Of a DNA stretch of 64,000 bases, positions 2,610-51,776 are shown one piece after another. The notes under the pieces were generated by a model. It was not told the origin of the DNA. It was given only the letters and a program-made list of their open reading frames with translations, and searched no databases. The stretch comes from a virus (Duplodnaviria > Caudoviricetes). Each line of letters opens with the position of its first letter. The first letter of the stretch is position 1. The position numbers and the translations under genes are program-made. The DNA lies in the IMG/VR virus record IMGVR_UViG_3300022377_000098, positions 1-64,000 of that record; one strand, given 5' to 3'.

Positions 2610-3382
2610 AGTGTACACCACCTCGGAGTTATCATAACATTGTCACATCCTGAATAGCGAATCCCGCAATCACCGGGCGGCAGTTCTGGATAGCCATCAC
2701 CATGCTTGCTTCCAGAAAGATTTTGCGTACCCTTGTAAATCTGCATCCGTTCGCTGTCAATAGTGGCATTTCCATCAACAGCAATCGTCCATGACCGGTC
2801 ACCGACTTCAAGTGTGGCTGTTCCGTTCCCTAGAATTTCAATTAACGGTTTCGCTGTGAATGGGAATGGATTGTTTAAAACAGTGCCACTTTGTACTGTT
2901 TGCGGTTCCATGCCCCTTATGGAATAAGCAAAAGGTTTGCAGTCAAAGGAAAGTGTCTGTTTTAAAATGGTGTTTGCTTCTGCATTAGCATTAAACTCAC
3001 CTTTAAAACGTCCATACCGAACAAAAAGTGTATCATAAGTGTCCCATAGTGGACGGTATACGCCCGGTTGACTTTGCAGCCATCCTTTTATAGAATGTGC
3101 CCATGCGTATTGACTGGAATATTTGCATACATGAGGATTTATGTAGTTGTTGGCAGGGGACATATAAGACCATGTATCATAAGATACAGTAACATTCTTA
3201 AAATAGCCTTTGTCGATTAATAGGGAGCCATCCCGTCCGGGGATGCTTACCTCTTCAACGTCACGCTCTGCACCGCTTATCTGTGGCGGTGCTTCAATAA
3301 CAATCCCATAATTGTAGGACGGTTCACCCCCAAAATTGAAACTATTGATAATTCCGTCAAACCACCGATGTGTAATTTCCAT
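2606..3382 (-). CDS. Distal tail protein (Dit-like)
   Basis: Lies after the TMP; motifs VSIPGRDG, F.CKPFAY, N.....AKPLI.I.G.G and terminal ITPRWCTL. Confidence 0.8.
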   Translation of the reverse strand: MEITHRWFDGIINSFNFGGEPSYNYGIVIEAPPQISGAERDVEEVSIPGRDGSLLIDKGYFKNVTVSYDTWSYMSPANNYINPHVCKYSSQYAWAHSIKGWLQSQPGVYRPLWDTYDTLFVRYGRFKGEFNANAEANTILKQTLSFDCKPFAYSIRGMEPQTVQSGTVLNNPFPFTAKPLIEILGNGTATLEVGDRSWTIAVDGNATIDSERMQIYKGTQNLSGSKHGDGYPELPPGDCGIRYSGCDNVMITPRWCTL

Positions 3383-6158
3383 ATGCTGCCGCCCTTCTGC
3401 GCTGTAAAAAATCTAATTCTTCGCCTATTTGCTGTGCTGTACGCTTTGGATTGTTGATGTCCTGTGCATACACATTAATGTTGTACTGTGGCTGCACAGT
3501 GGCAGCAGTTGACTGCGTATTCTGTGCGGGGCTTCCCGCATAATACCCGGTCCCAATATTTGCAGTTACTGGTACATTTGCCGTAAGGCCGTTAATGGAC
3601 TGGTGCAGACTGTCTGACATGGTGCTTGTTACGCTCTGCATATTGTTTGCAAAGCCCTGCCCGATACCCAGCACCATGTTTTTACCGACAACGTCAGCCA
3701 TTACGCGGGACGGAGAGTGGATACCCAAGGCACTTTTGATGCCATTTACGATGCCATTGCAGAATCCAGTAATCTGATTCCATAGCCAACCTGCTGCACC
3801 ACTGATACCGTTCCAAATTCCGGTAACAATGTTTCTGCCGATGTCCAGCATTTTACCGGGTATGGACTGGAAAAAACCCACAATGCTGCTGACAATGCGT
3901 GGAAAATTAGATGCAATAAATGAACCCATGTTTCCAATCCATGTTCCGATGTTGGTTACAATCTTGCAGAGTTCAGTCCAAATCCTCCCCGGAAGCTGCT
4001 GGAAGAACGAAACAACTGATTGAACGAAACGTGGGAAATTAGAAGCAACATAGGAAATGCAGTTGCCGCCCCATGTCGTAACTTTTGTAAACGCCTGTAC
4101 AAGGAAATTCCATATCTTTCCCGGAAGCTGACTAAAGAATGTGCCAATATTATTTATCAGCTGCGGAATTGCTTGACCAGCCCACGCGATTGCATCCGCA
4201 CCAAATTTAATCAGTTTGCCGATTGCAAATCCCAATGCATAGCCGATATTTTCAGGCAGCTTCATAAACCACGTTTTCAAATTATTGAGAAAATTCGGAA
4301 TGCCCTGCGTAAAGAATGTTACAATGCTATTCCAAAAACTTTGAAGCGCAGTTGTGATTGTAGTCCACAAACCGGAAAAGAACTGCGGAAGCGTTTGAAA
4401 AAACGTAACAACCGACTTGACCGCATTGACAATGCCATGGAATATTGTCCCGAAAAATGTGCCAATCGTACTGAAGAAAGCTTTAATGCCGTTCCAGATG
4501 TTTATAACGGCGGTACGGAATCCAGTATTTGTATCCCACAAGTGCTTTATTGCAACTACAGCTACACCAATAATTGCGATTACCGCACCAACTGGATTCA
4601 TCAGCATCCCCACCACTTTTACGATTGAACCTATTGCCGTTATCATCTTTCCGGCTATTAGCAGCGCAGGCCCCACCGCTGCAACCACGGCTGCTATTTT
4701 CACAATTTGCTGCTGTTGCCCTGCTGAAAGTGCAGAAAACTTATCTACCAACTTCCCAATGAGAGTAGCGATTTTTGTAATTGTGGGCGCTAATGCGGTT
4801 TGAATTTTAATAGCGGCTGTTTCTAATGAACCTTTCATCTGCTCGATTGCGCCTTTTGTATTGCCTTGCATTGTAGTAGCCATCTGCTGCGCTGCGCCAT
4901 TGGAGTTTTTTAGTGCAGATGTTAATTGATTAAGGTTGCCACTCCCATCTTTGAGTAATACTTGCATTCCACTCAAAGCATCTGTACCCATAATGGTTGC
5001 AATCTTCTGGTCGCGTTGCTGGTCTGTCAACCCTTTTGTTTTTGTACCCAACTCTTGTATAATTGTTGACAATGATTTCATTTTGCCAGATGAATCATAA
5101 GCAGAAAACCCAATACTGCTCATTGCGTCCGCTGCCGTACTGGATGGATTCATAAGATTTGTTAATGCGCCGCGCAAAGTAGTACCTGCCTGTTCGCCTT
5201 TGATACCGGAGTCAGCCATTTCACCAATTGCAGCGGTAACTTGTTCTAAACTCCATCCTGCATTCTGCGCAACAGGTGCAATGTACTTCATGGCTGCACC
5301 TGTATCCGCAACAGCGGCATTTGTCTTAGCAGCATTTTGTGCTAACACGTCTGCAACGTGTCCTGCATCACTAGCAGCCAAGCCAAAACCTCTTAAAGTA
5401 GATGCAGCAATATCAGATGATGTCGCTAAATCTTCTCCACTGGACGCTGCAAGGTTAAGCATGCCCGGCATTGCTTCCATAATTTCTTTTGTGGAAAATC
5501 CTGCGGATGCAAGGTTTTCCATGCCTTGTGCAACTTCACCCGCACTATAAGCTGTGCTCTGCCCTAAATCAAGCGCTTGCTGTCTTAATTTATCAAAGTC
5601 ACTGCCTGTTGCACCACTGATCGCTTTAACTCTGCTCATTTGTGCTTCAAAGTTGTCGCCTACTGTAACGGCGGCTGTACCAATAGCAAGAACAGAACCA
5701 GTAACAGGCAAAAGTTTTTCACCCATGCCGCTGATTTTATCACCGGTATTTTTAACTTTTTCACCTGCAAGCTGAAACTTTTGCCCTGCAACAGAGCCAA
5801 ACTCGCTCGCCTGCTTTTTCAGACTTTTTAGCTTATCCTCGGTTTGCTCAATTTCACGCTCAAAGGCACGGTACTTTTCTTCCCCAAGGTTTCCGCTTTC
5901 AAACTGCTGCTTTACCTGCGACTCCACAGATTTCAGCTGTTCAAGCTTTTGCTTAGTTGCGTCAATGGATTCTTTCAGAACCTTTTGCTTTTGCGCAAGC
6001 AGTTCCGTGCTACCGGGGTTAAACTTCAACTGCGTGTTAATCTGCTTCAGCTCACTTTGCAGACTGTAAGTTTCTTTGTTGACATCTTTCATAGCCGTTG
6101 AAAGCTTCGTGGTGTCGCCGCCAATTTCAACGGTAATGCCCTTTATGTTATTTGCCAT
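3357..6158 (-). CDS. Tape measure protein (TP901 family)
   Basis: MANNIKGITVEIGGDTT start, FEAQMSRVKAISGATG core and Trp/Phe-periodic repeats. Confidence 0.92.
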   Translation of the reverse strand: MANNIKGITVEIGGDTTKLSTAMKDVNKETYSLQSELKQINTQLKFNPGSTELLAQKQKVLKESIDATKQKLEQLKSVESQVKQQFESGNLGEEKYRAFEREIEQTEDKLKSLKKQASEFGSVAGQKFQLAGEKVKNTGDKISGMGEKLLPVTGSVLAIGTAAVTVGDNFEAQMSRVKAISGATGSDFDKLRQQALDLGQSTAYSAGEVAQGMENLASAGFSTKEIMEAMPGMLNLAASSGEDLATSSDIAASTLRGFGLAASDAGHVADVLAQNAAKTNAAVADTGAAMKYIAPVAQNAGWSLEQVTAAIGEMADSGIKGEQAGTTLRGALTNLMNPSSTAADAMSSIGFSAYDSSGKMKSLSTIIQELGTKTKGLTDQQRDQKIATIMGTDALSGMQVLLKDGSGNLNQLTSALKNSNGAAQQMATTMQGNTKGAIEQMKGSLETAAIKIQTALAPTITKIATLIGKLVDKFSALSAGQQQQIVKIAAVVAAVGPALLIAGKMITAIGSIVKVVGMLMNPVGAVIAIIGVAVVAIKHLWDTNTGFRTAVINIWNGIKAFFSTIGTFFGTIFHGIVNAVKSVVTFFQTLPQFFSGLWTTITTALQSFWNSIVTFFTQGIPNFLNNLKTWFMKLPENIGYALGFAIGKLIKFGADAIAWAGQAIPQLINNIGTFFSQLPGKIWNFLVQAFTKVTTWGGNCISYVASNFPRFVQSVVSFFQQLPGRIWTELCKIVTNIGTWIGNMGSFIASNFPRIVSSIVGFFQSIPGKMLDIGRNIVTGIWNGISGAAGWLWNQITGFCNGIVNGIKSALGIHSPSRVMADVVGKNMVLGIGQGFANNMQSVTSTMSDSLHQSINGLTANVPVTANIGTGYYAGSPAQNTQSTAATVQPQYNINVYAQDINNPKRTAQQIGEELDFLQRRRAAAYGNYTSVV

Positions 6159-6229
6159 AAATTCTATCATCTCTGCTTTCATTCAAAATAAGGCTGTCTC
6201 CAACTACAGGAGCCAGCCCTATCAATCCA

Positions 6230-6840
6230 TTATTTCTGCCCGAACAGTTTGCGAAGTGTTTCTCTGTCCGGCTCTGTCTGCTGCTGCACCCAGCAGCGTT
6301 CCAGCCAGTCACGGCCATCCTCTGTCATAGACGCATTGTAAATCACAGCATCCCGCAGATACAGCCAAAACACAAATACATTCAGCTTGTCAAGCTGTGC
6401 AAAATTCATGCCGGTAAACCGCTGCACAAGCTTTCTGTCCAGAGTGGATATGCTGTAATGCCCCTCCGCTTCGTTTACGTCCCCATGGCAAGAGGGAGGG
6501 GCTAATTCTTTTTTGTGTCAGCCATCCAAGTAAAAAATGCGTCAAGCAAACCGTTCAGTTCGTCAAAATCCATTGCTTCAATGTATTCCCGCGGAATTTT
6601 AAAACCAGCTTTGTTGCTGTCAAGCAGCTTTTCCACAGATTCCCGCAGGGCTTTAATTACGTCTTTTTCACTGTCTGCGTTACCAACACCGTTTACGGAC
6701 TCCATCAAATCTTCCATGACTTTCAGCTTCGGCGGCTTGACTTCAACCGTTGTGGTGTGGTCTTGCCCATCCTCATCTGTAACGTGCAATTTCACCGAAA
6801 AATAACGGCGCTTAATTGCGGATACGTCATACATAATCAA
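6230..6840 (-). CDS. Tail assembly chaperone, long form via -1 frameshift
   Basis: Slippery A AAA AAG at 6514-6508 just before the TAG of the short ORF; the -1 frame stays open into ORF 6230..6427. Confidence 0.75.
6502..6840 (-). CDS. Tail assembly chaperone, short form
   Basis: 112 aa between major tail protein and TMP; ends in TAG. Confidence 0.8.
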   Translation of the reverse strand: MIMYDVSAIKRRYFSVKLHVTDEDGQDHTTTVEVKPPKLKVMEDLMESVNGVGNADSEKDVIKALRESVEKLLDSNKAGFKIPREYIEAMDFDELNGLLDAFFTWMADTKKN

Positions 6841-7424
6841 GCACCTACCTTAGTTTCGGTAGTTGCGGCTGTAGTGGTAGGCAGCGTTTCATCATAAATA
6901 ATTAGCGTACCTTCGCCATCGCTCGGCTGTGCCTTTACCTCAATGTCCATGTTTCCGGAATCGTCAGCCTTAAAGCCCAGTTTGAAGCCGCCGGACTGCG
7001 TACCAACCACTGTCAGACGAACATCTCCATACTGTGCATCTTTGTGAACGAATCGAAACAGGTACAAAGTGTTGTCCACATTGCCAAGGCCGCCAATTTT
7101 TACAACGCGGTGCCCGGGCTTTGTGGATTCATCCACACGGGCAGTCGGGGCAAATTTTTTGAAGTCGAAGCTGCTCCACGCAATCATGGAAGCTTTCAGC
7201 GTGGCTTCTTCGGCCGTTACAGCGTCGCGCACATATACGCCCAAATCATCCTTGAACTCTTTGATGGTCGGCTTGTACTCGCATTCAGCACCTTTTTCAA
7301 TGCCGCCCATCAGATTATCTGCCGTTTCGATAACAGAATCTTCCGGGACTTTTCCCGATGTAAATGCAACTGCGTAAAGCTTGCCGCTTCCCAGCGGGAT
7401 ATGAATATTTTTATTGTCAGCCAT
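6837..7424 (-). CDS. Major tail protein
   Basis: 195 aa, I.LGSGKLY start, G...GG....YKP motif; position in tail module. Confidence 0.8.
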   Translation of the reverse strand: MADNKNIHIPLGSGKLYAVAFTSGKVPEDSVIETADNLMGGIEKGAECEYKPTIKEFKDDLGVYVRDAVTAEEATLKASMIAWSSFDFKKFAPTARVDESTKPGHRVVKIGGLGNVDNTLYLFRFVHKDAQYGDVRLTVVGTQSGGFKLGFKADDSGNMDIEVKAQPSDGEGTLIIYDETLPTTTAATTETKVGA

Positions 7425-7426
7425 AG

Positions 7427-7747
7427 TTAAACCCTCTCATTAATTTCAAAGCTGTATATTGTTTCAAACATTGCTTCATTCGAAAGCCATATTTGTTCAC
7501 GGCGGTATTTCACAGCCGCATCATTCAGCAGTTTTTCAAGTGCTTCTCCGTATTCACTGCTGTCTGAATAACGTTCCACAGTAACCGAATGCTTGTACAG
7601 ACTGTTTTTTAAGTCCTCGCCGCCTGCTGTTGTGTTATCGAAATAACAGATATATGGAAGCAGCGGTGCATCATCCGGTAGGAAGCAGGTCTTTGCAACT
7701 GGTTCCCCCGTCTGCTCCAGCCATGCCTGAATATCAAGCATTTTCAA
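7427..7747 (-). CDS. Tail terminator / tail completion protein
   Basis: 106 aa in the head-tail module; P.LPYICY motif. Confidence 0.65.
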   Translation of the reverse strand: MKMLDIQAWLEQTGEPVAKTCFLPDDAPLLPYICYFDNTTAGGEDLKNSLYKHSVTVERYSDSSEYGEALEKLLNDAAVKYRREQIWLSNEAMFETIYSFEINERV

Positions 7748-8138
7748 TCACTTCTCTTATACGCTTTTCAACTGCCGCGTTTGCTTTTTCCTCATTCGGC
7801 TTAATATGTACAATGGCTTCAACCCGCCCGCCATTGCGCTTGGCATGCCCATTTTCCAGCAGGTGCGTCAGCTGATAGTCAGTAGAATTGTGCACAGTAC
7901 AGGTCACAGAAAGCGGCGTTTCAGCCGTTTGCACTTTCCAGCCGCGCTTATACTTTCCGCCGCCCTTTTTCCGAACCGGGCTGTCTGCCTTAATGCCCTC
8001 GCAACACTCCGCTGCGGTTGCTTTGACAGCTGCTTTGGTACCGTCAATTACTTTATCGGTATAGCCTGCCAGTACTGCCGAAATGGTCGCTCCCAGATTG
8101 TCCGCACTGCATTTTATATTGTCAGCCATGCTGTTCAC
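7734..8138 (-). CDS. HK97 gp10-like neck protein
   Basis: SPVR..G.Y..GW and YQLTHLLENGH..RNGGRV motifs. Confidence 0.8.
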   Translation of the reverse strand: MNSMADNIKCSADNLGATISAVLAGYTDKVIDGTKAAVKATAAECCEGIKADSPVRKKGGGKYKRGWKVQTAETPLSVTCTVHNSTDYQLTHLLENGHAKRNGGRVEAIVHIKPNEEKANAAVEKRIREVIENA

Positions 8139-8433
8139 CTTTTTTCATAGTCAGGTACAGTTCCACTGTGTCACCTTTAAAATAGGTACGATACACGGTG
8201 TAACGCCCAGCGGCAAGCTGTGGACTTCCGATATACTGCACAATGGTTTCGCCCGCATAGTCCTCTGCGTGAACTGCAGCACGGGCGGAAGGCTTTATGC
8301 TATTTTGCCGTGCATTTGCGTCCTCTGTACCGGTAACACTGCTAATATCGCAAAACGCAGTTCGTGCCGTTTCATTCGCTGTACTGCCGGTATATGTACG
8401 CTTAACCAGCGTGATTTCATCCGAAAAATACAA
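8122..8433 (-). CDS. Head closure / head-tail adaptor protein
   Basis: 103 aa; Y.VYRTY..GD.VELY motif; synteny. Confidence 0.7.
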   Translation of the reverse strand: MYFSDEITLVKRTYTGSTANETARTAFCDISSVTGTEDANARQNSIKPSARAAVHAEDYAGETIVQYIGSPQLAAGRYTVYRTYFKGDTVELYLTMKKGEQHG

Positions 8434-8494
8434 GTGGCTGTTTCCTCCCCTATCACGACTTACCGGGCACTGCCCGGCAGTATCGTGATTTGAT

Positions 8495-8788
8495 TTATTC
8501 CGGCTGCCGCATCTTGCGAATGCCGTCAGCCATCAATAAGTAGTCTTCACGGTTTCGGTCTGCATCGTCGCCGTTAATGCCAAACTGCCAGCGGGCAAAG
8601 CAGCGAACAGCGCCAAGAATCAGCGGATTGGCTTCATCTTCTGCAACTGCTTCCGCTACTCCCAGCCGCTCCAAATCAGCGCGGCACTGCTGCACAATAT
8701 CGGTCAGTTCTGCATCAACATGCGTTCCGCTGCTTCGGCGAACCGCAAAGCGGACTTTATCCAGATATTCAGGAGTTACCGCTTTCAT
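8495..8788 (-). CDS. Head-tail connector (gp6-like)
   Basis: 97 aa after the capsid gene; D.EL..I...CRADL.RLGV. Confidence 0.7.
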   Translation of the reverse strand: MKAVTPEYLDKVRFAVRRSSGTHVDAELTDIVQQCRADLERLGVAEAVAEDEANPLILGAVRCFARWQFGINGDDADRNREDYLLMADGIRKMRQPE

Positions 8789-8798
8789 TGGCTATGCC

Positions 8799-9935
8799 TC
8801 ACTTGCCGGAAGCTGCTGCCGCCTGCTTAATAATCTGCATACCGTGATATACAGCAAGGTCAGCATTTGCAGTTGCAAGGCCGCGAACCGCCATCAGATT
8901 CTTTGCAAAATACTCGCCGCCCTCATCAGTGGAAACTTCATAATCACCCCACATCGGCATTTTAATAGCTTTCGGCTGCCCATAAAGCTGGGTACCATCT
9001 GTCAGACTGGAATTGATAGAAAATGGCACACTCAAACCACCATCTGTAATAGTGCCATTGTTTTCATCTGTGAATTTAATATCGTACAGCGCACGCTTTT
9101 CATTTGTGCCGCGAACCTTGCCCAGCGTGTACAGGTCACCTTTTGTAAGGTACAGCTTTGTGCCGCCGCCAACGGATTCATCCGAACCAAAACCAAGTAC
9201 AACATTACGCAGATAGTCCGCATCCAGTGCAATACCGTTTCGGGTTTCAGCAAGCGCAGAAGCCAGAACAGCCGCAACAATCTTTGCTTTTGCGGTACGG
9301 CGCAGAGCCGTGCGGGCACTGTTTTCCACATTTGCGGCATAGTTCACGTTTGTCATCTTAGCAACCTGATTGCTGATAGTGTCCACAATACCCCAAGTGG
9401 CCGGGTTAATGGTAACGTAATCATAATCCGCTCCGGTTCCAGTAACAGCGCTGCCATCCGTCACATCTGCTGCGATGGCATCCGTCTTTTTATACGGGAT
9501 TTTCCAAGAGCCGGTACCGGTCGCGTCAATCGCTTCAACATCATCCACAATGGAAGATACAGCCTGCGACAGGTCGCCAATGGTTTCAGAAATGCCAGCA
9601 GGTGCTGCGATTTTGCCGGTAGCAAGTACAGAACGCTGCTCAATGCTCATATGTCCAGTACTGCGGAAAACATCTGCACGCTTCTCAATTCCGGACTTCT
9701 CAGCGGCACGGCTCTGCGGGACTTTTCCGGGCTTCAGCTGGTCGGTCAAATCCATGTGGGAACGAATCTCTTTTTCCTCCGAGGCCAGCGCATCCGCTTC
9801 TGTTTTGATTGCCTGCATACGCTCTGTGGTAGCAGTCAGTTTGCCATCATCGCCTCGCTTTTCAACCTCTGTGCGAAGTGCTGTTTTACGGCTTTCGATT
9901 TCTTTCAAACGTTCCATTTCGGTTGTCATAATCAA
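8799..9935 (-). CDS. Major capsid protein (HK97 fold)
   Basis: 378 aa with coiled-coil delta domain; between protease and connector. Confidence 0.85.
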   Translation of the reverse strand: MIMTTEMERLKEIESRKTALRTEVEKRGDDGKLTATTERMQAIKTEADALASEEKEIRSHMDLTDQLKPGKVPQSRAAEKSGIEKRADVFRSTGHMSIEQRSVLATGKIAAPAGISETIGDLSQAVSSIVDDVEAIDATGTGSWKIPYKKTDAIAADVTDGSAVTGTGADYDYVTINPATWGIVDTISNQVAKMTNVNYAANVENSARTALRRTAKAKIVAAVLASALAETRNGIALDADYLRNVVLGFGSDESVGGGTKLYLTKGDLYTLGKVRGTNEKRALYDIKFTDENNGTITDGGLSVPFSINSSLTDGTQLYGQPKAIKMPMWGDYEVSTDEGGEYFAKNLMAVRGLATANADLAVYHGMQIIKQAAAASGK

Positions 9936-9961
9936 ATTACCTCATTTTTCAATAAAATTGT

Positions 9962-10594
9962 TTACAGGCTCAAAAGTACACCGCACTCTGCGGCCAGTTT
10001 CTCACGTTCTGCCAGATTATCAGCAAACTCCTGCTGCTCTTCTGCGGCTCTCCGCTCGCAGTAGCTTCTGGCGCTTATATTGGTAGCCGGGTTTGCAGGA
10101 ATGGAAACAGCGGATACATCATACACTTTGCCGATTTTCAAAATTGTGCGTGTGTGTGTAGCTGCATCGTAGCTGTCCGCATTCACTGTAAAAGCCCAAC
10201 TCATGCCCTGAATCAGTCCGGCGGAAATATCATTAAAGATGTTCCGTGCCGCATCGCTTTTGGATAGGTCAGCGGCTACAAAAATGCCGTGCGGGTCGCT
10301 CGGGTCAACCAGCAGCGTATGATTGCTCTGCCGCGCCAATACGCGTCCCTCGTGGTCGTACTGCATAATCACATCTGACAAATCTGCTTCGTCTAATGCG
10401 TGCCGGTCAATCTGCTCTTTATAGTCCACACCGTCAATGCTGCCCAGCACATAAGGCTGGTTGTATGTAGTGGCATAACCCTCCACATAATTTTCTGTGT
10501 CAAACTTTTTATCTGCACCATCTGTCGGTGCAGCAAGAATCTGCATGACACGGTATTCACGTTCTTTCGGTTTAAACGGCATTCTCGCCATCAT
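9962..10594 (-). CDS. HK97-family prohead protease
   Basis: VEGYATTYN, YDHEG.VLAR, GMSWAF, VYDVSAVSIPANP motifs. Confidence 0.9.
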   Translation of the reverse strand: MMARMPFKPKEREYRVMQILAAPTDGADKKFDTENYVEGYATTYNQPYVLGSIDGVDYKEQIDRHALDEADLSDVIMQYDHEGRVLARQSNHTLLVDPSDPHGIFVAADLSKSDAARNIFNDISAGLIQGMSWAFTVNADSYDAATHTRTILKIGKVYDVSAVSIPANPATNISARSYCERRAAEEQQEFADNLAEREKLAAECGVLLSL

Positions 10595-11783
10595 CCTTTC
10601 CGTTTGTTTGATGTTTGGTCATATCCTCTGCCTTGATATAATTAAGACTTACAAGGCGCTTGTCGCCGTTCTCTACCGGTGCATATCCCAGCAGTTCGCG
10701 GTATTCATTTGTAGTCAGTAAACCAAGTTCTTTAGTATCCGTTACAATATTCAGCTTCGTCTGCCAGCTTGCGCCGGTGGCTGCACCGCCAAAAATCAGA
10801 ATTTTATTGCCGAAGTTCTTTTCTGATTGGCTGAACAGTGCCGTTGTAAACGCCTGACTCATAGCCAGCCAGCGTGGCTCAATAATTGCGTCATAGTAGT
10901 TCTGCATGGTTTGTTCTGATGCTGTGTTGTTCACAACTTCGCGCGGCGTACGCCAGTAACTGTAAAGCCTGTCTGTAATCTGCTGCATTTGCGCGGCGTT
11001 TGCTGCCCATGTTGACACAGACAGTGGAACATAATTTTCCGTTGCATCCAGTGAAACAATGCCGCCGTTTTTGGCCGCGTCGCTCATACGTGATACAAAT
11101 TCATCCTGTGATTTCTTTACATCATCCGGTGAAAGCATGGTCTCCTTTTGCTTAATCATTCCGAAAATCTTTCCGGAAACATTGGTTGCAGAGGACAAAC
11201 CTTCATCTATGTTCTGCACCATTTGAATTGTTTCAGTAACAGGTGCATTTCCATTACCCGCAATGCCCGAAGCGTCATAATGTCGGCGCAGGATTACCAT
11301 ATCTTCCAATGGTAAAAGGTGCTGTTCTCCGTCCATATCGTAAAACTGCACTGCGTACCCGCCGCCAATAATTTGCCGAAATTCAAACTGCTGATAAGCA
11401 ATCGGCCATATTGCTTTCGGGTTTATGGCTTCATCCCACTGAATCCACGCAAGTGCTGTGTTTTTTAAGTCCAACTGCCAACTCGTCGCATACAGGAAAT
11501 CGTAAGTAGACATTAAAGGGTTTGGCTGCTGAAACAGCTTCGTGTAAGGGCTGCTGCGGTTGATTTGCTTTACACGCCCCTGTTTGTCCTGCACAACGTG
11601 GAACACTTGTGCTTTTGCCGTGTGTGTAGCATTACAATCCAAAATCGCCCGCGTGATTTCCTGCCCGTCAATAGCCCCGTTCCACAGTTTTGAATGTGCA
11701 CCGATGCCAGAAATATATGTTGTTTGTTGATTTGTTTTCTTTGGAAAAAACCTGCTGAAAATTCCCACTGTATCACCTCGCAA
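10572..11783 (-). CDS. Portal protein (HK97 family)
   Basis: PNPLMSTYDF; 403 aa; directly after TerL. Confidence 0.9.
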   Translation of the reverse strand: MRGDTVGIFSRFFPKKTNQQTTYISGIGAHSKLWNGAIDGQEITRAILDCNATHTAKAQVFHVVQDKQGRVKQINRSSPYTKLFQQPNPLMSTYDFLYATSWQLDLKNTALAWIQWDEAINPKAIWPIAYQQFEFRQIIGGGYAVQFYDMDGEQHLLPLEDMVILRRHYDASGIAGNGNAPVTETIQMVQNIDEGLSSATNVSGKIFGMIKQKETMLSPDDVKKSQDEFVSRMSDAAKNGGIVSLDATENYVPLSVSTWAANAAQMQQITDRLYSYWRTPREVVNNTASEQTMQNYYDAIIEPRWLAMSQAFTTALFSQSEKNFGNKILIFGGAATGASWQTKLNIVTDTKELGLLTTNEYRELLGYAPVENGDKRLVSLNYIKAEDMTKHQTNGKDDGENAV

Positions 11784-13452
11784 GACTTAAAATATACTCG
11801 GAATGATTTTGCAAGCCTACCCATGCATTCAGCAGTGAAATCATTCCATCTATGCGCCGGTTGCGGGCGCTTTTCACTGGCATAACGGAGTCTATGCCGT
11901 CTTTATTTCTGCTTTTTACAGCCGTGTTTAAAAGGCACCAGCGAAGCATTGGATTATTCTGATAAATTACCCGGTGTTCCTCAAATGTGCCTTGCAACAG
12001 CTTCATTGGGTAAGTCCACGTAAAAGGTCCCTGCCGGATTTTTTCCATGTTAAAGCCTGCTTCCGTCATTTGCGGTGCCCAGTAACCAGACAGCGCCGCA
12101 TCATAGCACACCCTCAAAGGACGAATGTCATGCTGTTTCACCATGTCTACAAACCACGCTGTAACGGCATTGTAGTCAACAGTTGCACCGGGGCATATCG
12201 TAAGCCATCCCAATTCTGCCCAACGCTGATAAGGCGCTTCACGGTCACTGTTGCTTGCACCACCCAACGCGTCTATTTTAGACTGCGGAATAAAATACTT
12301 TTGCAGAACGTAATAGTTTTCATCTTTCGGCTTCACAATCAGCAGTGTGGCACAGGTAAGGTCTGTTGTTGCTGACAGGTCACACCCGCCGATTGCGTAA
12401 CTGTGTTCCAGATAAGACATCGGTATCACGGCTTCATTGACTGCCTGTTCAAATGTAAGCCAGCCGGTACTGCTGTTTTCAAAAATATTGAAGTCTTTTG
12501 TCAGCAGTGTAGGGAGAAACGACGGGTCACGTTTAGCTTGTTCAACGTGTTCCCGCAGTGTTTGCAAACTCTTAATTTGTCCAAGCCCCGGGTTTGCCTT
12601 TTCCCAGCAGTCTTCTTTTGTCCATTCATCCCGGCTGTCCAGTTCGTAAATCAGCGGAAGCGTGCGGAAATCATGGAAACCATCATCCCACATTGCAATA
12701 TGAGAAGCGAATGTATATTTATCGTCGAAGAATGCTTCCCTTCGGAAACCGTTTGTAGAAATCATCCAGTAAAGCGGCTGTTCTCGGAAAGACTGGGATT
12801 GCTTCATTACGTCATATAGTTCAGAGTCCGGTTGTTCGTGCCATTCATCCTGACAAACAAAGGAAGCGTTTAAACCGTCCAGATTGTTTGACTTTGCGGC
12901 AAGGACTTTAATGATTCCAAAATTGTGGCTGCAATAAATATCACACCGCCGCTTTCGCTCTGTATCCTTTAGAGCCGGTGACTGTGCCCGCATATTACAG
13001 ACTTCCTGAAATACCTGTCCTGCTTGGTCGCGGCTGTTTGCAACGCAGTAAATTTCGGGGCCGTTCTCTTTGTCATCCAGCAGCATATCATGCAGCACTG
13101 CGGCTGTTTCTGTGGATTTCCCACACTTTCGCCCCCGCACGTCTATAACCTCACGAAAGCGCCGCAAATTGTCCTTGTCTACCCAGCCAAAAACAAGTTG
13201 TAGTTTTGCCAGCTGAAATAATTCAAACTGGATTGGCTGACCGCCGCGCTTCCCCTTACTCTGCTTACAGAAATGCTCCATAAAGTCAATGTGGTGCTGT
13301 CCAAGTGCCGCATCAAAATGATAAGGGAAATTGGGCGGTGGATTGTCCATCCACCTGCATTCCCGCTCATAAACAGCAGTAACTTTTTTATCAGATGCTA
13401 TTTTGCCGTCTTGAATGGCTTCCAGATACTTCTTTGGCCAATTCACAATCAC
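11773..13452 (-). CDS. Terminase large subunit
   Basis: GRKCGKS Walker A, DG.NAS...QDEWH, RRIDGMISLL motifs. Confidence 0.93.
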   Translation of the reverse strand: MIVNWPKKYLEAIQDGKIASDKKVTAVYERECRWMDNPPPNFPYHFDAALGQHHIDFMEHFCKQSKGKRGGQPIQFELFQLAKLQLVFGWVDKDNLRRFREVIDVRGRKCGKSTETAAVLHDMLLDDKENGPEIYCVANSRDQAGQVFQEVCNMRAQSPALKDTERKRRCDIYCSHNFGIIKVLAAKSNNLDGLNASFVCQDEWHEQPDSELYDVMKQSQSFREQPLYWMISTNGFRREAFFDDKYTFASHIAMWDDGFHDFRTLPLIYELDSRDEWTKEDCWEKANPGLGQIKSLQTLREHVEQAKRDPSFLPTLLTKDFNIFENSSTGWLTFEQAVNEAVIPMSYLEHSYAIGGCDLSATTDLTCATLLIVKPKDENYYVLQKYFIPQSKIDALGGASNSDREAPYQRWAELGWLTICPGATVDYNAVTAWFVDMVKQHDIRPLRVCYDAALSGYWAPQMTEAGFNMEKIRQGPFTWTYPMKLLQGTFEEHRVIYQNNPMLRWCLLNTAVKSRNKDGIDSVMPVKSARNRRIDGMISLLNAWVGLQNHSEYILSLAR

Positions 13453-13832
13453 TTAGCACCGCCGCCATTGACAAAATCTATCATTTCGGCTGCTGCATCT
13501 CGGTCGCCTGTATCCGGCAGCAGTTCCAGCAGCTGTCGTGTCACAGCGCTGTATGTTTTTGTGTACCGCTCCACCAAATCGGCTGCAACGCTTTTTTTCG
13601 TGCCGGACTGGTGTTCCCCGTTCTGATAAACGTCCACAAAGCCATCACGCATGATGATTTTGTTCAGTTCGTCCAAACATACAGCCAGAAAAGCGGCCTG
13701 CTCAATCAGTCCTGCAGCAGCTTTCAGCTTCACCGCGTCTGCATCTTTCAGAATTTTCTTGAATTCGGAACGCTTTCTTTTAATCATCTTTTCGCGCTCC
13801 GCTTCGGTATAAATATGCTCAAAATTTGCCAT
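13449..13832 (-). CDS. Terminase small subunit (P27-like)
   Basis: G...YQNGE.QSGTKKS.A motif; upstream of TerL. Confidence 0.75.
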   Translation of the reverse strand: MANFEHIYTEAEREKMIKRKRSEFKKILKDADAVKLKAAAGLIEQAAFLAVCLDELNKIIMRDGFVDVYQNGEHQSGTKKSVAADLVERYTKTYSAVTRQLLELLPDTGDRDAAAEMIDFVNGGGAK

Positions 13833-13954
13833 TTCCCATCACATCCTAACTGCTTTTTACTACACCCACGCGGCAAAATCGCAATCGGTTTTTGGGAGGA
13901 GCATTGCAACGGTCTTCTCTCTGCTTCCCAAATCCGGCACCCGGGGGGGGATAG

Positions 13955-14275
13955 TCATTTCCTAAATTTCGTAAGTTGCCCGTTCTCATCAAAGTAATAC
14001 CGCATATCGCAGTCAATGCTTTTTCTCCCATGCTCTGCCATCGTTAATGTCGTGTGGCACTTATGGCACAGACATTGAAGATTATCAATGTTAAGTGCTA
14101 TGCTCGGGTTGCCTATATTCTCCGGTGTCAGTTCCCGTATATGGTGAACCTCCGTTGCTCTGGCTCCGCAAAAAACGCAGGTAAACATATCGCGCCTTAG
14201 TGCCTGCTGCCTGACTGCTTTCCATACAGCACTGCGATAGAAAGGCTTTGCCCATTCTTTAGCCACTGGTGGCAC
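13955..14275 (-). CDS. HNH endonuclease (cos packaging-associated)
   Basis: FYRS..WK..R, C..C..EVHH...NL..LC..CH; followed by a C-rich cos-like tract at ~13940-13950. Confidence 0.85.
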   Translation of the reverse strand: MPPVAKEWAKPFYRSAVWKAVRQQALRRDMFTCVFCGARATEVHHIRELTPENIGNPSIALNIDNLQCLCHKCHTTLTMAEHGRKSIDCDMRYYFDENGQLTKFRK

Positions 14276-14894
14276 CTTGCTTTTCAGCAGTAGCTTTCAT
14301 GTTTTTGAGTGCCATTAACTTTAATTTGGAAATATAACAGCGTGACACCCCGAACTGTTTTGCAATCTCCTCCTGCGTAAATCCATAAAAGAAATCTAAA
14401 ACAATTACTTGGCGTTGCTTTTCTGGAATGGCAGCAAGTAATGATTGAAGATATATCCGTTTATCACTGTTTACATAAACTTCTTCTGATTCAGTGTCAG
14501 GCAAAATATTTTCGAGCGTACCATTACCATCTTGCAGCGTCGACACATCTAAACTCGTACAATGATTTAACGTTCGCGGCGCAAGGTTTCCTCTAATTCC
14601 TATCAGCTCATTAAAGCAATTCTTTAATGGAAGATTCAAGAACGTTGTAAACTTCCAACTGTTTTCTGGATTGAAATCTCTTATAGCATCTAGCAACGCG
14701 AAAAATGCTGCTTGATTACAATCGTCCAATTCAACGCCACAACTTGCACATTGGTTTTTGTGAGAGTTAAAAAAAAAGTTTGCTTTCTGAAAACAAATTT
14801 TCTTCACGTTTTCCCACAGTTCCGCAATCGCTTCTTTATCTCCGCCTTTGGCTTTTATCGCCAGTTCTTCGTTTGTCATATTTAAAATCACCAT
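14259..14894 (-). CDS. Sigma-70-like late transcription factor
   Basis: MTNEELA..AK.GD..A..ELW, region 2 (DAIRDF....KFTT) and region 4 HTH (TQEEIA..FGVSR..IS). Confidence 0.8.
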   Translation of the reverse strand: MVILNMTNEELAIKAKGGDKEAIAELWENVKKICFQKANFFFNSHKNQCASCGVELDDCNQAAFFALLDAIRDFNPENSWKFTTFLNLPLKNCFNELIGIRGNLAPRTLNHCTSLDVSTLQDGNGTLENILPDTESEEVYVNSDKRIYLQSLLAAIPEKQRQVIVLDFFYGFTQEEIAKQFGVSRCYISKLKLMALKNMKATAEKQGATSG

Positions 14895-15044
14895 TCGGCT
14901 AAAATCAAATTAAAGGGGCATGGAAAATACCCCACATTTGTTAAGCTGCCCTGAAAGGCTTTCGCACGCTTAGAGTGCTATCCAATTTCGCTTGGCTCTC
15001 CGTTTGCGTCCGGCTTTCACGGAAGGATACTGCCCTGCATTGTT

Positions 15045-15103
15045 TGCACTCAGTGGGAGTTGAACCCACAACCGACTAGTGCGGCCACTCCGGTTTAAGC
15101 GCA
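15045..15103 (-). ncRNA. tRNA-like element without D arm or CCA
   Basis: T-arm GTGGG-TTCAACT-CCCAC closing an acceptor-like stem, with one long internal hairpin. Confidence 0.4.
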
Positions 15104-15213
15104 TGGTAAGTGGTAGGTTTTATAGCAACCTGCCACCTTAAGGAGGATAAAATACAGATATAGAAAAAAGGAAACAGATTGGAGGAGCGCAGCGCTGAAT
15201 TTGACGCTGCGCT

Positions 15214-15289
15214 TGGTACGCCATCGGGGACTCGAACCCCGGCTTTCCGAATTTAGAGTTCGGCGCTCTCCCAACTAAGTTAATGACGC
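15214..15289 (-). tRNA. Amber suppressor tRNA (anticodon CUA), tRNA-Lys-like body
   Basis: GCGTCAT TA ACTT AGTTGGGA GAGC G CCGAA CTCTAAA TTCGG AAAGC CGGGG TTCGAGT CCCCG ATGGCGT A CCA; full 76-nt cloverleaf with encoded CCA. Confidence 0.92.
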
Positions 15290-15351
15290 ATAAAGAAAAG
15301 AACCGAAGCAGACAGCCTATTGGCTGAAAGTTTCGGTTCTCTTAGGAACTC

Positions 15352-15504
15352 TTATTTTATGTACCCACTCTGCATATTCCCACAACGCGGGCATTTGACT
15401 TCATAGTATCCGTTAAACTCACCCAGTTTTTTGTTGCACTTTCGGCACCGGGCTTCTCTTAGGACTAATTCCGCTTTTAAGAACGCTTTTTGCTTTTCTA
15501 TCAT
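15352..15504 (-). CDS. Com-like zinc-ribbon regulator (50 aa)
   Basis: EARCRKCNKKLG....EVKCPRCG, Mu Com family pattern; not in the ORF track; near-identical C-terminal part at 45161-45265. Confidence 0.75.
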   Translation of the reverse strand: MIEKQKAFLKAELVLREARCRKCNKKLGEFNGYYEVKCPRCGNMQSGYIK

Positions 15505-15518
15505 CCCATGCACACTTT

Positions 15519-16199
15519 CTATGCCGCTTTAGAAGCAGTGAGTCTAACTTGATACGATTCAAGCAAATGCTTTCTTTGCTGGAAATCTGAAACCGAAACC
15601 AGCAACCCAACGTCTACTTTTTGCAGTAGGTCAAGCATTTTAATTTGTTCGTCTGCCAGATATGGGCGGATGCTCTTTCCCTTTCCAATACCATTAACAA
15701 GTCTGAACTGTTTTGCCGTCATTCCAAGCACAATGCGGTTTAGCATATCAACTTCATTACTGTAATGATATGGTTTTGGATTGTCATACAGTAACTTGAT
15801 GTTTTCGGTTAGCAAGGGAAATTCCTGTTTTGCAGCTTCCAGCGTTTTAATGAATTTCTCCATCTCGTTGAAACGATTGATGTAGAGTTCCTTGAAATGC
15901 ATGGCTTTCTGCCCGGTATATCCCATCGCCAGCATGGTAAATCCGTCACGGGTCATGCAGTAGCACGGCTGCTTTTTATGCTGATTGTTGGTGTATGAGG
16001 ACAGCGCAAAATTGCGCTGTCTAAATTCTTCACTCATCCCAGATGTAGGGCCAGTGATTTTGCGAATATCGCGCAGTACCTCTTTGTGATTTTTCTCAAA
16101 GGAATCAGCCACATACAGGCTGTCTACCCTCGCTGTATCATGGGTATCTGCAAACACTCCGTACTCGTCTTTTGGAATCAGTTCATTCAATATATGCAT
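15519..16199 (-). CDS. Rha-family phage regulator / antirepressor
   Basis: DSLYVA..F.K.H..VLRDI, NFA.SSY, C..MTRDGFTMLAMGYTG.KA..FKE.YI motifs. Confidence 0.85.
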   Translation of the reverse strand: MHILNELIPKDEYGVFADTHDTARVDSLYVADSFEKNHKEVLRDIRKITGPTSGMSEEFRQRNFALSSYTNNQHKKQPCYCMTRDGFTMLAMGYTGQKAMHFKELYINRFNEMEKFIKTLEAAKQEFPLLTENIKLLYDNPKPYHYSNEVDMLNRIVLGMTAKQFRLVNGIGKGKSIRPYLADEQIKMLDLLQKVDVGLLVSVSDFQQRKHLLESYQVRLTASKAA

Positions 16200-16561
16200 A
16201 CCTCCAAAAATAATACTTAAGTAGAGGGAGCGGCAGGGGCTTATCCTGCTCATTCATTATTCCCATAAATACTTTAAACCGTTTCGGTGCCGCTCCCGGT
16301 TCGTGCACCGTTTGCAACATATAATGGGCGGCACAGAAAGGAGTGTAAAGAGCGCCGCCCTGCTTTTACTATATATTAATTGTACATCACAAAAAAATAT
16401 TTCGCATCTAAAAAGCCATTACGAAATTGTGAACACGTACAGGAATTTTTTCTGCTTCAGCTGTCCTGTCTGAAAGCTAAACTTACTGAGAAGCCTTGGT
16501 TGAATCTTCCACTTGGGAAGTGTATACTGAAATTGAAATTATTTTAAAGAAGAGGATTACA

Positions 16562-20672: not shown

Positions 20673-21143
20673 TTGACTTCTGGTGAAAAGATGCGCACGC
20701 TACGCATTGAAAAAAAATTAACACAAAAACAATTAGGGGAACGATTAGGAATATCGCAGTCCGCAGTTGGTCAACTGGAAAACAGTAAAAGGCCTATACG
20801 AATTGACACATTAGAAAAAGTATCTGCCGCTCTAGAAGTTCCAATTGTCCGCCTTTACGATGATGTGATGCTTTCCGAATGGGACAAACAATATGAGGAC
20901 ACAGAAAAGTATATATTTGAAATGTACCGAGAAATATGCTCATATTTAGACACATATGCCGAGGATGCTATTTCAAACGTTTTTGAACAAGAAACACTGC
21001 GGTGCATTTCTCAAAAATCTGGGATGCTTACGAACCAGCGCGAAGTTGATAGATTTATTGAAAAATATTCAAACTTTTTTCAGTCCAATGCTATAAACCA
21101 GTGCCATTCCTCAACAGATGACGCAAGTAATAACAACCCATAA
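20673..21143 (+). CDS. CI-like XRE repressor
   Basis: LR.EKKLTQKQLG..LGISQSAV.Q.E motif; AGGAGG RBS before TTG at 20673. Confidence 0.85.
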   Translation: MTSGEKMRTLRIEKKLTQKQLGERLGISQSAVGQLENSKRPIRIDTLEKVSAALEVPIVRLYDDVMLSEWDKQYEDTEKYIFEMYREICSYLDTYAEDAISNVFEQETLRCISQKSGMLTNQREVDRFIEKYSNFFQSNAINQCHSSTDDASNNNP

Positions 21144-21353: not shown

Positions 21354-22568
21354 ATGCCAAAGCGTAACGCTCCGGGCGCGGGAACCATACGGAAGCGGCC
21401 TAACGGCTCATGGGAAGCGCGCTTCACTGTTGGACGTGACCCCGGTACCGGAAAGCAGATACAAAAAAGCGTTTACGGAAGAACGCAAAAAGAAGTCCGT
21501 CAGAAACTTTCTAAGGCCACTGCTAGTATTGACGCGGGCATTTATAAAGAACCATCACGCCTGACCTTTGGGGAATGGCTGGACATCTGGACGGAAAATT
21601 ATTGTCTGAATGTAAAGCCCCGCACGCTTCAAAGCTATAAGAGTTCCTGCGCCTACCGAATAAAGCCCGCTCTTGGCGCTGTACAGCTTAAAAAGCTTAA
21701 ACCGCCGATTATTCAAAAGTTTATCAATGATGGCCTACAGGGCAATCTAGCAGGGCGTAAAGGCTCACTAAAGAATCGCCGGTCAGATGACAGCGCCGCG
21801 CTTGTCCCCTTGTCTGAGAAAACTATGCGGAATCTGTACGGCGTTATTCATAAGGCTTTAGAGCAGGCTGTTGCCGTGGGATACATTCCGGTTAATCCAG
21901 CCAGCGGCTGTACACTGCCACGCAAAACGAAACCGGAAATCAATCCGCTGGATGAACAGCAGACACGGGATTTTCTGCAAGTCATTCAAGAGGATGACTA
22001 TGAACTTGTTTTTAAAGTAGACTTATTCACCGGCCTGCGGGAAGGTGAAATTATTGGCTTGCCATGGGATGCTGTGGATTTTGAAACTGGAACAATACGG
22101 ATTTATCAACAGTTGCAGAATCAAGGCAAAGCCGGTTTTCACTTTGCACCGCCCAAAAACTCAAAAGAGCGCATTATTACTCCGGCACCTTTTGTTATGG
22201 AACTGCTGCGGCAGCAAAGAGCCATACAAAACCAATGGAAGCTGATTGCCGGTTCAGCTTGGGAAAATTCCGGTTTAGTTTTTACAAATCAATTAGGCGG
22301 TCATCTGTACGGCGCAACAATTTACAGACACCTGAAAGAAGCGGCGGCAGCTATCGGTTATCCAACACTCCGCTTCCACGACTTACGGCACACCTATGCA
22401 GTTGCCTCTATTCGGGCGGGTGATGACATCAAAACCATATCTGAAAATCTCGGTCATGCAACGGTCGCTTTCACATTAGACGTTTATGCCCATGTTACAG
22501 CCGACATGAGAAAAAGCAGCGCCCAGCGGATGCAAAACTATATCAACAGAATTTGCGCAACAAAATAA
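21354..22568 (+). CDS. Tyrosine integrase
   Basis: Arm-binding N-terminus G.G.IRKR.NG.WE.R; catalytic R (TGLREGE), H-x-x-R (FHDLRH), H (LGH) and Y motifs. Confidence 0.95.
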   Translation: MPKRNAPGAGTIRKRPNGSWEARFTVGRDPGTGKQIQKSVYGRTQKEVRQKLSKATASIDAGIYKEPSRLTFGEWLDIWTENYCLNVKPRTLQSYKSSCAYRIKPALGAVQLKKLKPPIIQKFINDGLQGNLAGRKGSLKNRRSDDSAALVPLSEKTMRNLYGVIHKALEQAVAVGYIPVNPASGCTLPRKTKPEINPLDEQQTRDFLQVIQEDDYELVFKVDLFTGLREGEIIGLPWDAVDFETGTIRIYQQLQNQGKAGFHFAPPKNSKERIITPAPFVMELLRQQRAIQNQWKLIAGSAWENSGLVFTNQLGGHLYGATIYRHLKEAAAAIGYPTLRFHDLRHTYAVASIRAGDDIKTISENLGHATVAFTLDVYAHVTADMRKSSAQRMQNYINRICATK

Positions 22569-23575: not shown

Positions 23576-23659
23576 CTGCAAAGGGTAAGTTAAAGGGTAA
23601 GCGCATTCCAATAGATATAAAAATAGCCCCGCAGGGTGCATTCCTACGGGGTTTTCCTT

Positions 23660-23707
23660 TGGAGCAGAAGACGGGAATCGAACCCGCATGACCAGCTTGG
23701 GAAGCTG
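23660..23707 (-). pseudogene. 3' half of tRNA-Gly(CCC); att junction between the two prophages
   Basis: CAGCTTCCCAAGCTGGTCATGCGGGTTCGATTCCCGTCTTCTGCTCCA; the 5' half (GCAGAAG, D arm) is missing. Confidence 0.88.
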
Positions 23708-45082: not shown

Positions 45083-45160
45083 TTTAAATACCTCCGTTAA
45101 TTAAAAAATAGCCGAAGCAGACAGCCTATTGGCTGCAAGTTTCGGTTCTCTTAGGAACTC

Positions 45161-45328
45161 TTATTTTATGTACCCACTCTGCATATTCCCACAACGCGGG
45201 CATTTGACTTCATAGTATCCGTTAAACTCACCCAGTTTTTTGTTGCACTTTCGGCACCGGGCTTCCTTTAGATTCGGTGTTGTTTGTTGGATTCGCAAGT
45301 TGTTTGCTGTCTGAACTTCCTTTAGCAT
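45161..45328 (-). CDS. Com-like zinc-ribbon regulator (55 aa)
   Basis: EARCRKCNKKLGEFNGYYEVKCPRCGNMQSGYIK identical to the prophage 1 copy; overlaps the portal 3' end. Confidence 0.75.
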   Translation of the reverse strand: MLKEVQTANNLRIQQTTPNLKEARCRKCNKKLGEFNGYYEVKCPRCGNMQSGYIK

Positions 45329-51727: not shown

Positions 51728-51776
51728 AAAAAAAGAACGCCTCCATATTGGTAGGCGCTCTAGGCACTCTATTTTT

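Follow-up and report, generated by a model that had tools for sequence, protein, structure and literature searches.

A tRNA(CUA) without UAG codons of its own to read in a small standard-code prophage of Caproicibacterium amylolyticum, and its kinship with the tRNA(CUA) of a tandem prophage

Why does a temperate phage that keeps to the standard genetic code carry a tRNA with the anticodon for UAG? The question is raised by prophage P1 of Caproicibacterium amylolyticum, a 23.6-kb temperate siphophage bounded by a 31-bp direct repeat (positions 24 to 54 and 23652 to 23682), next to which lies a second prophage, P2, extending from ~23.7 kb to past the end of the record. The stretch of DNA analysed as a whole (the window) was the first 64 kb of this single viral record of 72,269 bp. 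Five tRNAs were found in the window by ARAGORN, of which two have anticodon CTA, one in P1 (positions 15214 to 15289) and one in P2 (47064 to 47139), both on the minus strand. The former is the sole tRNA of P1.

A preliminary description of the locus had taken the sequence at 15214 to 15289 for a second CUA tRNA related to that of P2, and this reading was confirmed: the sequence is a genuine tRNA(CUA). It scored 57.4 bits against the Rfam tRNA model RF00005 (56.1 bits for the P2 tRNA; gathering score, 29) and forms a canonical cloverleaf with 20 of 21 stem pairs standard, the single mismatch (A10xC25) being common to the P2 tRNA. Its CCA end is encoded, the discriminator is A73, and the scaffold is of the lysine type, with full-length matches to tRNA-Lys(CUU). 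The anticodon lies in a 7-nucleotide loop (CUCUAAA) with U33 and a purine at position 37, and this loop is identical in all four members of the tRNA family described below. ARAGORN labelled the tRNA 'Pyl' on account of the anticodon only; a Pyl-type architecture has a short D loop, a 3-nucleotide variable loop and a 6-bp anticodon stem, whereas the P1 tRNA has 7/4/5/5 arms, a 5-nucleotide variable region and 79% identity to tRNA-Lys. No Rfam family other than tRNA (ribozymes and T-box elements were looked for) came near its gathering score close to the P1 tRNA. Matches at E <= 1 beside it were far below gathering, the most notable being a short match to the 3' end (T arm) of tmRNA at 15053 to 15069. 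Judged from its sequence, the gene has the look of a working amber suppressor, with transcription, processing, aminoacylation and UAG suppression predicted.

The P1 and P2 tRNAs are identical at 62 of 76 positions (82%), and the 14 differences are distributed in a way that leaves every helix unbroken. All 8 stem differences retain pairing: three pairs show compensatory changes (P1 versus P2: 30:40, A-U versus G-C; 50:64, G-C versus U-A; 52:62, G-C versus C-G) and two pairs (4:69 and 1:72) show changes to G-U wobble. The remainder consists of a swap at the tertiary pair 26/44 and four positions in loops or the variable region. The compensatory changes in the anticodon and T stems reported earlier were thus quoted correctly. 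In simulations, the probability of no broken pair was 4e-4 given 14 random substitutions and 7.5e-5 given 8 stem substitutions. The earlier claim that these changes imply selection for function is upheld in part: the comparison with P2 argues for structural constraint on the P1 tRNA (P = 4e-4), but support from within the P1 lineage was modest, as detailed below.

The best full-length match of the P1 tRNA in a BLAST search with its 76 nucleotides against six whole genomes (five host-type genomes and that of the host isolate) was tRNA-Lys(CUU), at 75 to 79% identity. We compared host tRNA-Lys(CUU) with the P1 tRNA, a P1-lineage variant (L075), the P2 tRNA and the tRNA of a P2-like prophage in the isolate (L104). 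Five derived states relative to the host tRNA (A10, U13, G29:C41 and A36) are common to all four. The U-A pair at 50:64 is common to the P2 tRNA and the isolate's P2-like tRNA, which have diverged from each other by 13 positions, whereas the host T stem is retained in the P1 type. Because the five derived states are shared and the T stems differ, the comparison indicates that the suppressor family arose once, from tRNA-Lys(CUU), and that the P1-type branch separated before the P2 tRNA and the isolate's P2-like tRNA diverged; the P1 tRNA is accordingly placed as a sister lineage and not as a copy of that of P2. The identity elements of Escherichia coli LysRS are U35 and A73, both of which are retained in the P1 tRNA, where position 36 is A instead of U. 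The P1 and P2 tRNAs have the same lysine-type scaffold, and since their anticodon loops, D arms, U35 and A73 are identical, they should be charged alike, and each could in principle substitute for the other. The isolate's CUA tRNA (L104:1496-1571) differs over much of its acceptor stem (GGGGAAU/AUUCCCC versus GCGCCAU/AUGGCGC), despite which its D arm, anticodon arm and A73 are unchanged; the alignment points to fast turnover of the acceptor stem in this family through compensatory changes.

Close copies of the P1 tRNA elsewhere in IMG/VR were not found by exact and degenerate pattern scans, and a pattern scan of JGI metagenomes for the P1 tRNA found nothing. A lysine-like CUA pattern matched 35 IMG/VR loci, whose CUA tRNAs were at most 79% identical to that of P1. 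Among 401 genomes of the host family, the A10/U13 signature occurred in the host isolate only.

The genes of P1 are those of a complete temperate phage in all but one respect. The plus strand carries a tyrosine integrase (21354 to 22568; phrog_1), a repressor-like gene listed in the gene tables (20673-21143) and a KilA-N gene. On the minus strand, the early genes run in the order DnaD-like, small regulators, Rha-type and Com-like zinc ribbon, followed by the tRNA, the sigma factor and HNH. The sigma factor, of the sigma-70 region-4 type (14259 to 14894, minus strand; phrog_351 and Pfam Sigma70_r4), is the first gene of the late block, and the late operon (630 to 14275, minus strand), in standard code, encodes HNH, TerS, TerL, portal, protease, capsid, connectors, tail tube, G/GT chaperone, tape measure, Dit and Tal. 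The distal att repeat (24 to 54) equals the 3' end of tRNA-Gly(CCC), as seen in the 31-bp direct repeat and in comparison with the intact tRNA-Gly of the related locus L078. At the integrase end, which forms the junction with P2, the repeat (23652 to 23682) is joined by more tRNA-Gly(CCC) sequence (23652 to 23707 in all, minus strand), which comprises only the 3' part of that tRNA; homology to L078 at this end extends to 23707. No holin, endolysin or multi-pass membrane protein was found between the att sites. Head, tail and packaging genes are thus complete in P1, the integrase is present and the att sites are intact, yet a holin or endolysin gene for exit from the cell is lacking (55-23650).

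Within P1, we found nothing for a UAG-decoding tRNA to act on. The structural ORFs had been described as intact, and this holds for all called genes, an internal stop being absent from every one of them (0 of 32). Late genes abut or overlap one another, so that there is no space for amber-bearing N-terminal extensions, and reading TAG as sense shifted the coding density of the late region by only +0.006. With no internal TAG and no such gain, P1 was not classed as a stop-codon-recoded (TAG-sense) phage. Its genes end in TAA (15), TGA (15) or TAG (2). The preliminary statement that nearly all end in TAA or TGA is therefore accurate (30 of 32) but unremarkable, given that TAG makes up 6.7% of host stops (10 of 149 across 200 kb sampled from the isolate genome); 2 of 32 equals the host level, and depletion of TAG stops as an adaptation of P1 was rejected.

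The two TAG-ended genes are those of the tail chaperone G (6502-6834) and Rha (15519-16190), and both TAG stops are backed by a second stop within 5 to 8 codons, so read-through would add 8 residues to G and 5 to Rha. The G-gene TAG is retained in L078, but the sequence of the 8-residue extension is not conserved; the Rha stop is TAA or TGA, not TAG, in relatives. The end of the G gene (6502-6520, minus strand) reads A_AAA_AAG AAT TAG, with a classic -1 slippery heptamer one codon before the TAG, and the -1 frame after it is open to 6232, which is the usual layout of G/GT frameshifting. A suppressor would give a third G/GT product here, G plus 8 residues. No UAG-gated gene or leader was found in the neighbourhood of the tRNA, no TAG-bearing ORF in the 319 nucleotides between the tRNA and the sigma-factor gene, and no Pth2-like gene in P1. 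Two kinds of candidate target were considered and rejected. An in-frame TAG upstream of the Com gene in L078 and L079 precedes the ATG, and this P1 has TAA there; other TAG-extended ORFs were not conserved between variants.

The setting of the tRNA bears on when it might be made. On its 5' side, a branched hairpin with a U-run, resembling a terminator or attenuator (15296 to 15343, minus strand; predicted folding energy, -24.2 kcal/mol; z = -5.0), ends 3 nucleotides before the tRNA, and a second predicted hairpin (15186 to 15213, minus strand; -18.7 kcal/mol; z = -6.1) lies directly 3' of it. In the alignment with L075, pairing in the latter survives several changes on both arms. Farther upstream on the same strand are the Com-like zinc-ribbon ORF of 53 amino acids (15352 to 15513; matches to phrog_6417 and Pfam Zn_ribbon_Com just below cut-off) and the Rha-type regulator (15519 to 16253; phrog_2657/Phage_pRha). 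The tRNA has no good promoter of its own; a promoter scan found promoter-like sites upstream of it only at or inside the Rha gene, the nearest at 16321-16349. Because these are the only such sites, the tRNA looks to belong to an early unit of the lytic cycle, with transcripts that read through the upstream hairpin to reach it, and not to be expressed in lysogeny. Sabotage of amber-locked phages by mistimed expression from a lysogen, one of the roles first suggested, fits this layout poorly, as the tRNA belongs to an early unit running in the lytic direction behind a Rha-type gene and not to the lysogeny module.

Downstream, the sigma-factor gene is preceded by a conserved leader (14895 to 15120, minus strand). 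Conservation between P1 and L075 over the ~210 nucleotides before the sigma gene is far above that of the 100 nucleotides just 3' of the tRNA. The leader contains a 43-codon basic ORF without a ribosome-binding site, a T-arm-like piece (15044-15082) that is a weak match to the tmRNA 3' end, and, immediately ahead of the ATG, a hairpin (14915-14933) that resembles a terminator. This stretch may serve the late sigma gene as a leader or attenuator. No tRNA was found upstream of distant sigma-factor homologues, and hence no conserved linkage of tRNA and sigma factor there.

Loci of the P1 lineage were fetched with the exact sigma-factor protein and its 96% relative, which gave ten loci from ten samples. 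The tRNA occupies the same place, ~320 nucleotides upstream of the sigma-factor gene, in all ten, and these include variants that differ around it: L079 has another integrase and other early genes, the L078 type has another Com cassette, and L075 has a 450-bp insertion beside the tRNA. The late genes of the lineage are 0 to 5% divergent. Compared with P1, the L075 tRNA has five changes, of which one restores C4-G69 and four lie in the D and T loops. The probability of so benign a pattern was 0.056, or 0.009 if invariant positions were also counted. The substitution rate of the tRNA is below that of the adjacent spacer, and combined with the benign pattern this gave a p of ~0.006 to 0.03, a value that comes from one divergent relative (L075). 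These figures lend modest support to purifying selection on the tRNA within the P1 lineage. The identity of the tRNA in L078-type copies was withdrawn as evidence of selection, the whole block from tRNA to TerL being identical there.

Beyond the lineage, 24 distant loci (Lachnospiraceae, Oribacterium and others) have TerL proteins that are 42 to 79% identical to that of P1 and align over nearly the full length, and share only HNH-TerS-TerL-portal with P1. None of the 24 has a CUA tRNA or a homologue of Rha, Com or the sigma factor, and reading TAG as sense raised their coding density by at most 0.05. The suggestion that the tRNA is a relic of a formerly locked genome is disfavoured because these distant late-gene relatives have neither the tRNA nor TAGs. 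In-frame TAGs of their own in close relatives, which the preliminary description had named as the sign of such a relic, were looked for in the P1 variants and close relatives, and none was found.

P2 differs from P1 in precisely this respect. Its TAGs fall inside regions that align to homologues, and P2 does use UAG as a sense codon. P2 TerL is broken by TAGs into three pieces in the same frame, and terminase homology is found on either side; the HMM match of a tail protein spans its TAG; and the portal UAG lies just after a DHxFLGR motif, conserved in homologues. Across the late operon, UAGs occupy the first codons of read-through virion genes (capsid, tape measure, tail protein and portal, and also TerL). 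The endolysin and holin genes have no TAG, and the lysis cassette forms the distal end of this amber-bearing operon. Phages with portals ~60% identical to that of P2, considered as donors of the tRNA, have no CUA tRNA. Two of them carry ordinary tRNAs (Ser-CGA, Gln-UUG and Ile-UAU; L127:8188-8489 and L128:8384-8459) downstream of the portal gene, roughly in the slot that the Com cassette and tRNA-Gly occupy in P2, and since their code is apparently standard, the recoding of P2 looks recent and local to Caproicibacterium phages.

Two further features of P2 were observed. Read through its two TAGs, TerL (48989-51814, minus strand) has 941 amino acids, the middle of which matches helicase-loader or primase-type families, and a LAGLIDADG-like motif lies beside the second TAG; this suggests the insertion of an intein or homing endonuclease. 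A degenerate tRNA-like sequence with an abnormal anticodon loop (48798-48867, minus strand), reported by ARAGORN only at a lowered threshold, lies within an insertion of ~160 nucleotides that is absent from the homologous P1 control region.

The order along the host contig is Cupin/ars genes, a prophage remnant, att, P1, a 3' fragment of tRNA-Gly(CCC), P2, intact tRNA-Gly(CCC), DUF4358 and ABC transporters. The tandem of P1 and P2 at tRNA-Gly(CCC) recurred in many assemblies, and empty att sites were seen in 6 of 10 host loci examined. A P2-like phage occupies the site alone in a complete C. amylolyticum genome, which has no P1 terminase and only the P2-type CUA tRNA, and in another assembly P1 adjoins the intact tRNA-Gly without an intervening P2 and has host genes as its neighbours. 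Either phage can thus lack the other as a neighbour, and the two are independent users of one integration hot spot. Their integrases are 23% identical and their sigma factors 20%, and identities among sigma factors, integrases and Rha proteins range overall from 20 to 37%; shared late control through the sigma factors was rejected on the basis of the 20% identity. Just outside the distal att of P1, before the host Cupin/ars genes, a Phage_holin_1 gene (73 amino acids) and a gene for 106 amino acids (L121:12609-13181) lie on the strand opposite to the P1 late operon and look like the remnant of an older prophage at the hot spot.

Recombination between the two phages is visible around the tRNA, which is flanked by short P2-like blocks. 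The cassette of Com and hairpin in P1 (15296-15462; 167 bp) is 97% identical by blastn to a P2 copy (45105-45271, minus strand), which in P2 precedes a 450-bp block and tRNA-Gly(UCC). The same P1 cassette is only 85.5% identical to that of the sibling L078, the next 3.5 kb of which is otherwise 99.7 to 100% identical. Ahead of the tRNA(CUA) in L075 lies a block of 450 bp, 93% like the one before tRNA-Gly(UCC) in P2. Because the cassette is P2-like in P1 and the 450-bp block is P2-like in L075, the 5' edge of the tRNA is read as a recurrent recombination junction, and on its 3' side the tRNA is always kept together with the hairpin, the leader and the sigma gene. Homology also links the control region ahead of the P1 Rha gene to that ahead of the P2 tRNA cluster. 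Elsewhere, a 97-bp block (P1 19000-19124, minus strand; P2 55299-55395) is 96% identical between the two; by its coordinates it covers the start of a 35-codon ORF of P1 (19000-19107) and the start and upstream junction of a gene for 293 amino acids in P2, and it looks like a scar of past recombination.

P1 offers no UAG, and in the phages of this host that were examined, sense UAGs were found only in P2-type virion genes; a selected effect of the tRNA, if there is any, is therefore most likely exerted in trans. The likeliest single role under selection, with a probability that we put at roughly 40%, is an effect on the UAG-containing genes of P2-type phages developing alongside P1, and the preliminary idea of a key to the neighbour's lock is plausible in this sense. 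The tRNA, derived from a host-type tRNA-Lys(CUU) and in one small family with the P2 suppressor, would be held in a mosaic early or regulatory module exchanged with P2-type phages. From the order of Rha, Com, hairpin with U-run, tRNA and hairpin ahead of the late sigma gene, it would be made in the lytic development of P1, once the upstream hairpin is read through. Where P1 and a P2-type phage develop in the same cell, it would add lysine-type UAG decoding, which would raise or advance translation of the amber-gated late genes of the other phage. P1, having no lysis genes, would have an interest in the P2 programme running to completion. The tRNA itself, its lysine scaffold, its kinship with the P2 tRNA, its constancy in the P1 lineage, the lack of targets in cis, the tandem layout and the recombination with P2 are established, whereas we infer expression of the tRNA, its charging with lysine, any effect on P2 and any benefit to P1. 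Counting for a role in trans are the absence of a use in cis, the evidently frequent encounters of P1 with P2, the lack of lysis genes in P1 and the position of the P2 lysis cassette downstream of amber-bearing genes. Counting against it, the P2 suppressor is intact, so that of P1 is redundant for P2; the P2 endolysin and holin genes have no TAG; each phage is also found without the other beside it; with sigma factors, integrases and Rha proteins only 20 to 37% identical, no shared late control is seen beyond short cassettes; and the within-lineage signal of purifying selection is modest.

It is quite possible, if still tentative, that the tRNA is instead an orphaned passenger. It would have been acquired with a regulatory module from the gene pool of recoded phages, or an amber-bearing late module of P1 would have been swapped for a standard-code one, and the tRNA would since have been carried by its linkage to the essential leader and sigma block, harmless because lytic-only and too young to decay; the case in which a suppressor is gained first, ahead of recoding, is included here. 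Absence of the region from Rha to sigma factor in 24 of 24 distant relatives, several P2-like blocks around the tRNA, the youth of a lineage with 0 to 5% late-gene divergence and a within-lineage constraint of modest significance are all as expected of a passenger, and the 6.7% share of TAG among host stops fits a model in which a rare stop is recoded first. There is also a precedent in the Agate clade, where a standard-code relative of recoded phages gained a TGA suppressor tRNA, an event interpreted as a move in the direction of recoding (Borges et al., bioRxiv 10.1101/2021.08.26.457843). Harder to reconcile with a passenger is that the tRNA is intact in four mosaic backgrounds although junctions fall exactly at its 5' edge, and that 5 of 5 changes in L075 spare pairs and invariant positions. 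The P1-type branch, moreover, is older than the split of 13 positions between the P2 and isolate tRNAs, which argues against a very recent pick-up from the neighbour.

The role in trans can be taken further, to a reading of P1 as a new, semi-dependent type of phage which would make its own virions, lack lysis genes, settle next to amber-recoded phages and use the tRNA as a master key to switch on or speed up the amber-gated late operon of its neighbour; with UAG suppressed, translation would resume and polarity would be lifted as far as the lysis genes, which P1 needs for its release. We regard this extension as unlikely. P1 resembles P4, PICIs and capsid-forming PICIs in being a small integrative element beside a larger phage, with shared short regulatory cassettes and an essential late function (lysis) missing, but it differs from them in its full set of head, tail and terminase genes and fits no described satellite class. 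Encoding terminase, portal, protease, capsid, connectors, tail tube, tape measure, Dit and Tal, and missing only lysis genes, P1 was not classed as a phage satellite.

A role apart from phage UAGs is improbable. The tRNA might serve read-through of host genes ending in TAG during lytic growth, or act as RNase P/Z 'punctuation' between the early transcript and the sigma leader, with the anticodon incidental; it does lie between two strong hairpins, linked to the leader and sigma block in every variant, and ~7% of host genes end in TAG. Yet the CUA anticodon loop is identical in 4 of 4 family members, including that of P2, the evident function of which is decoding, no host gene can be singled out as the target, and distant sigma homologues have no upstream tRNA. 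Least probable is a use in cis, whether as programmed read-through of G and Rha or through a small leader or gene, gated by UAG, in the neighbourhood of the tRNA, for although the G stop has a suggestive context, is kept in L078 and, like that of Rha, is backed by a second stop, the gains would be 8 and 5 residues, the former unconserved, the Rha TAG is replaced in relatives, the G stop follows a canonical frameshift site, and neither a Pth2-like gene, an amber-gated Com gene in this P1, a TAG leader ORF nor a conserved TAG-extended ORF was found.

Orphan suppressor tRNAs in standard-code phages are already known. The Agate relative resembles P1 in having a suppressor tRNA without in-frame recoded stops, a close tie to recoded phages and a rare-stop background; it differs in that its suppressor reads TGA and its genome is a single large one of virulent type, whereas P1 is a small temperate phage with a lysine-type UAG suppressor that every lineage member seen retains and that has its sister in an unrelated, recoded prophage sharing the att site in tandem. 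XacN1, a virulent Xanthomonas phage of 384 kb with a full tRNA set, has two CUA tRNAs, and in silico read-through of its own amber stops gives no target (PMC5852040). P1 is like it in having a CUA tRNA without an amber target of its own, but the 23.6-kb P1 has no tRNA besides this one, and obvious UAG targets exist in a co-resident phage. The Garnet and Topaz prophages (code 15) are TAG-recoded temperate phages of standard-code Bacillota and Bacteroidota, which depend on a suppressor tRNA of phage origin for their lytic genes (Borges et al., bioRxiv 10.1101/2021.08.26.457843); P2 is of that kind, and P1 differs in having no in-frame TAG. Glutamine is the amino acid described for TAG suppressors of recoded phages (Borges et al., bioRxiv 10.1101/2021.08.26.457843), in contrast to the lysine-type scaffold of the P1 tRNA. 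New, then, are this scaffold, the constancy of the tRNA across a temperate lineage without recoding, the presence of its sister, as the suppressor, in a recoded tandem prophage unrelated to P1, and the P1/P2 recombination visible at its edge.

The system is testable whichever reading is right, since the host species has been cultured and one sequenced isolate carries a P2-like phage alone. Recoding is currently viewed as a private timing device, in which a phage's own suppressor unlocks its own late genes, and P1 is an unrelated standard-code phage with a sister key. That such keys might be shared or stolen has been touched on only briefly, by Borges et al. (bioRxiv 10.1101/2021.08.26.457843), in whose view the gain of a suppressor is a step before recoding. 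If the P1 tRNA were a passenger, it would be a clean natural example of that 'suppressor first' stage and would mean that suppressors spread in a local phage gene pool by modular recombination. If it acted in trans, recoding would no longer be private, and keys could be shared, stolen or turned against their owner; and were P1 semi-dependent as well, two phages in the same cell would be competing or cooperating over the genetic code itself.
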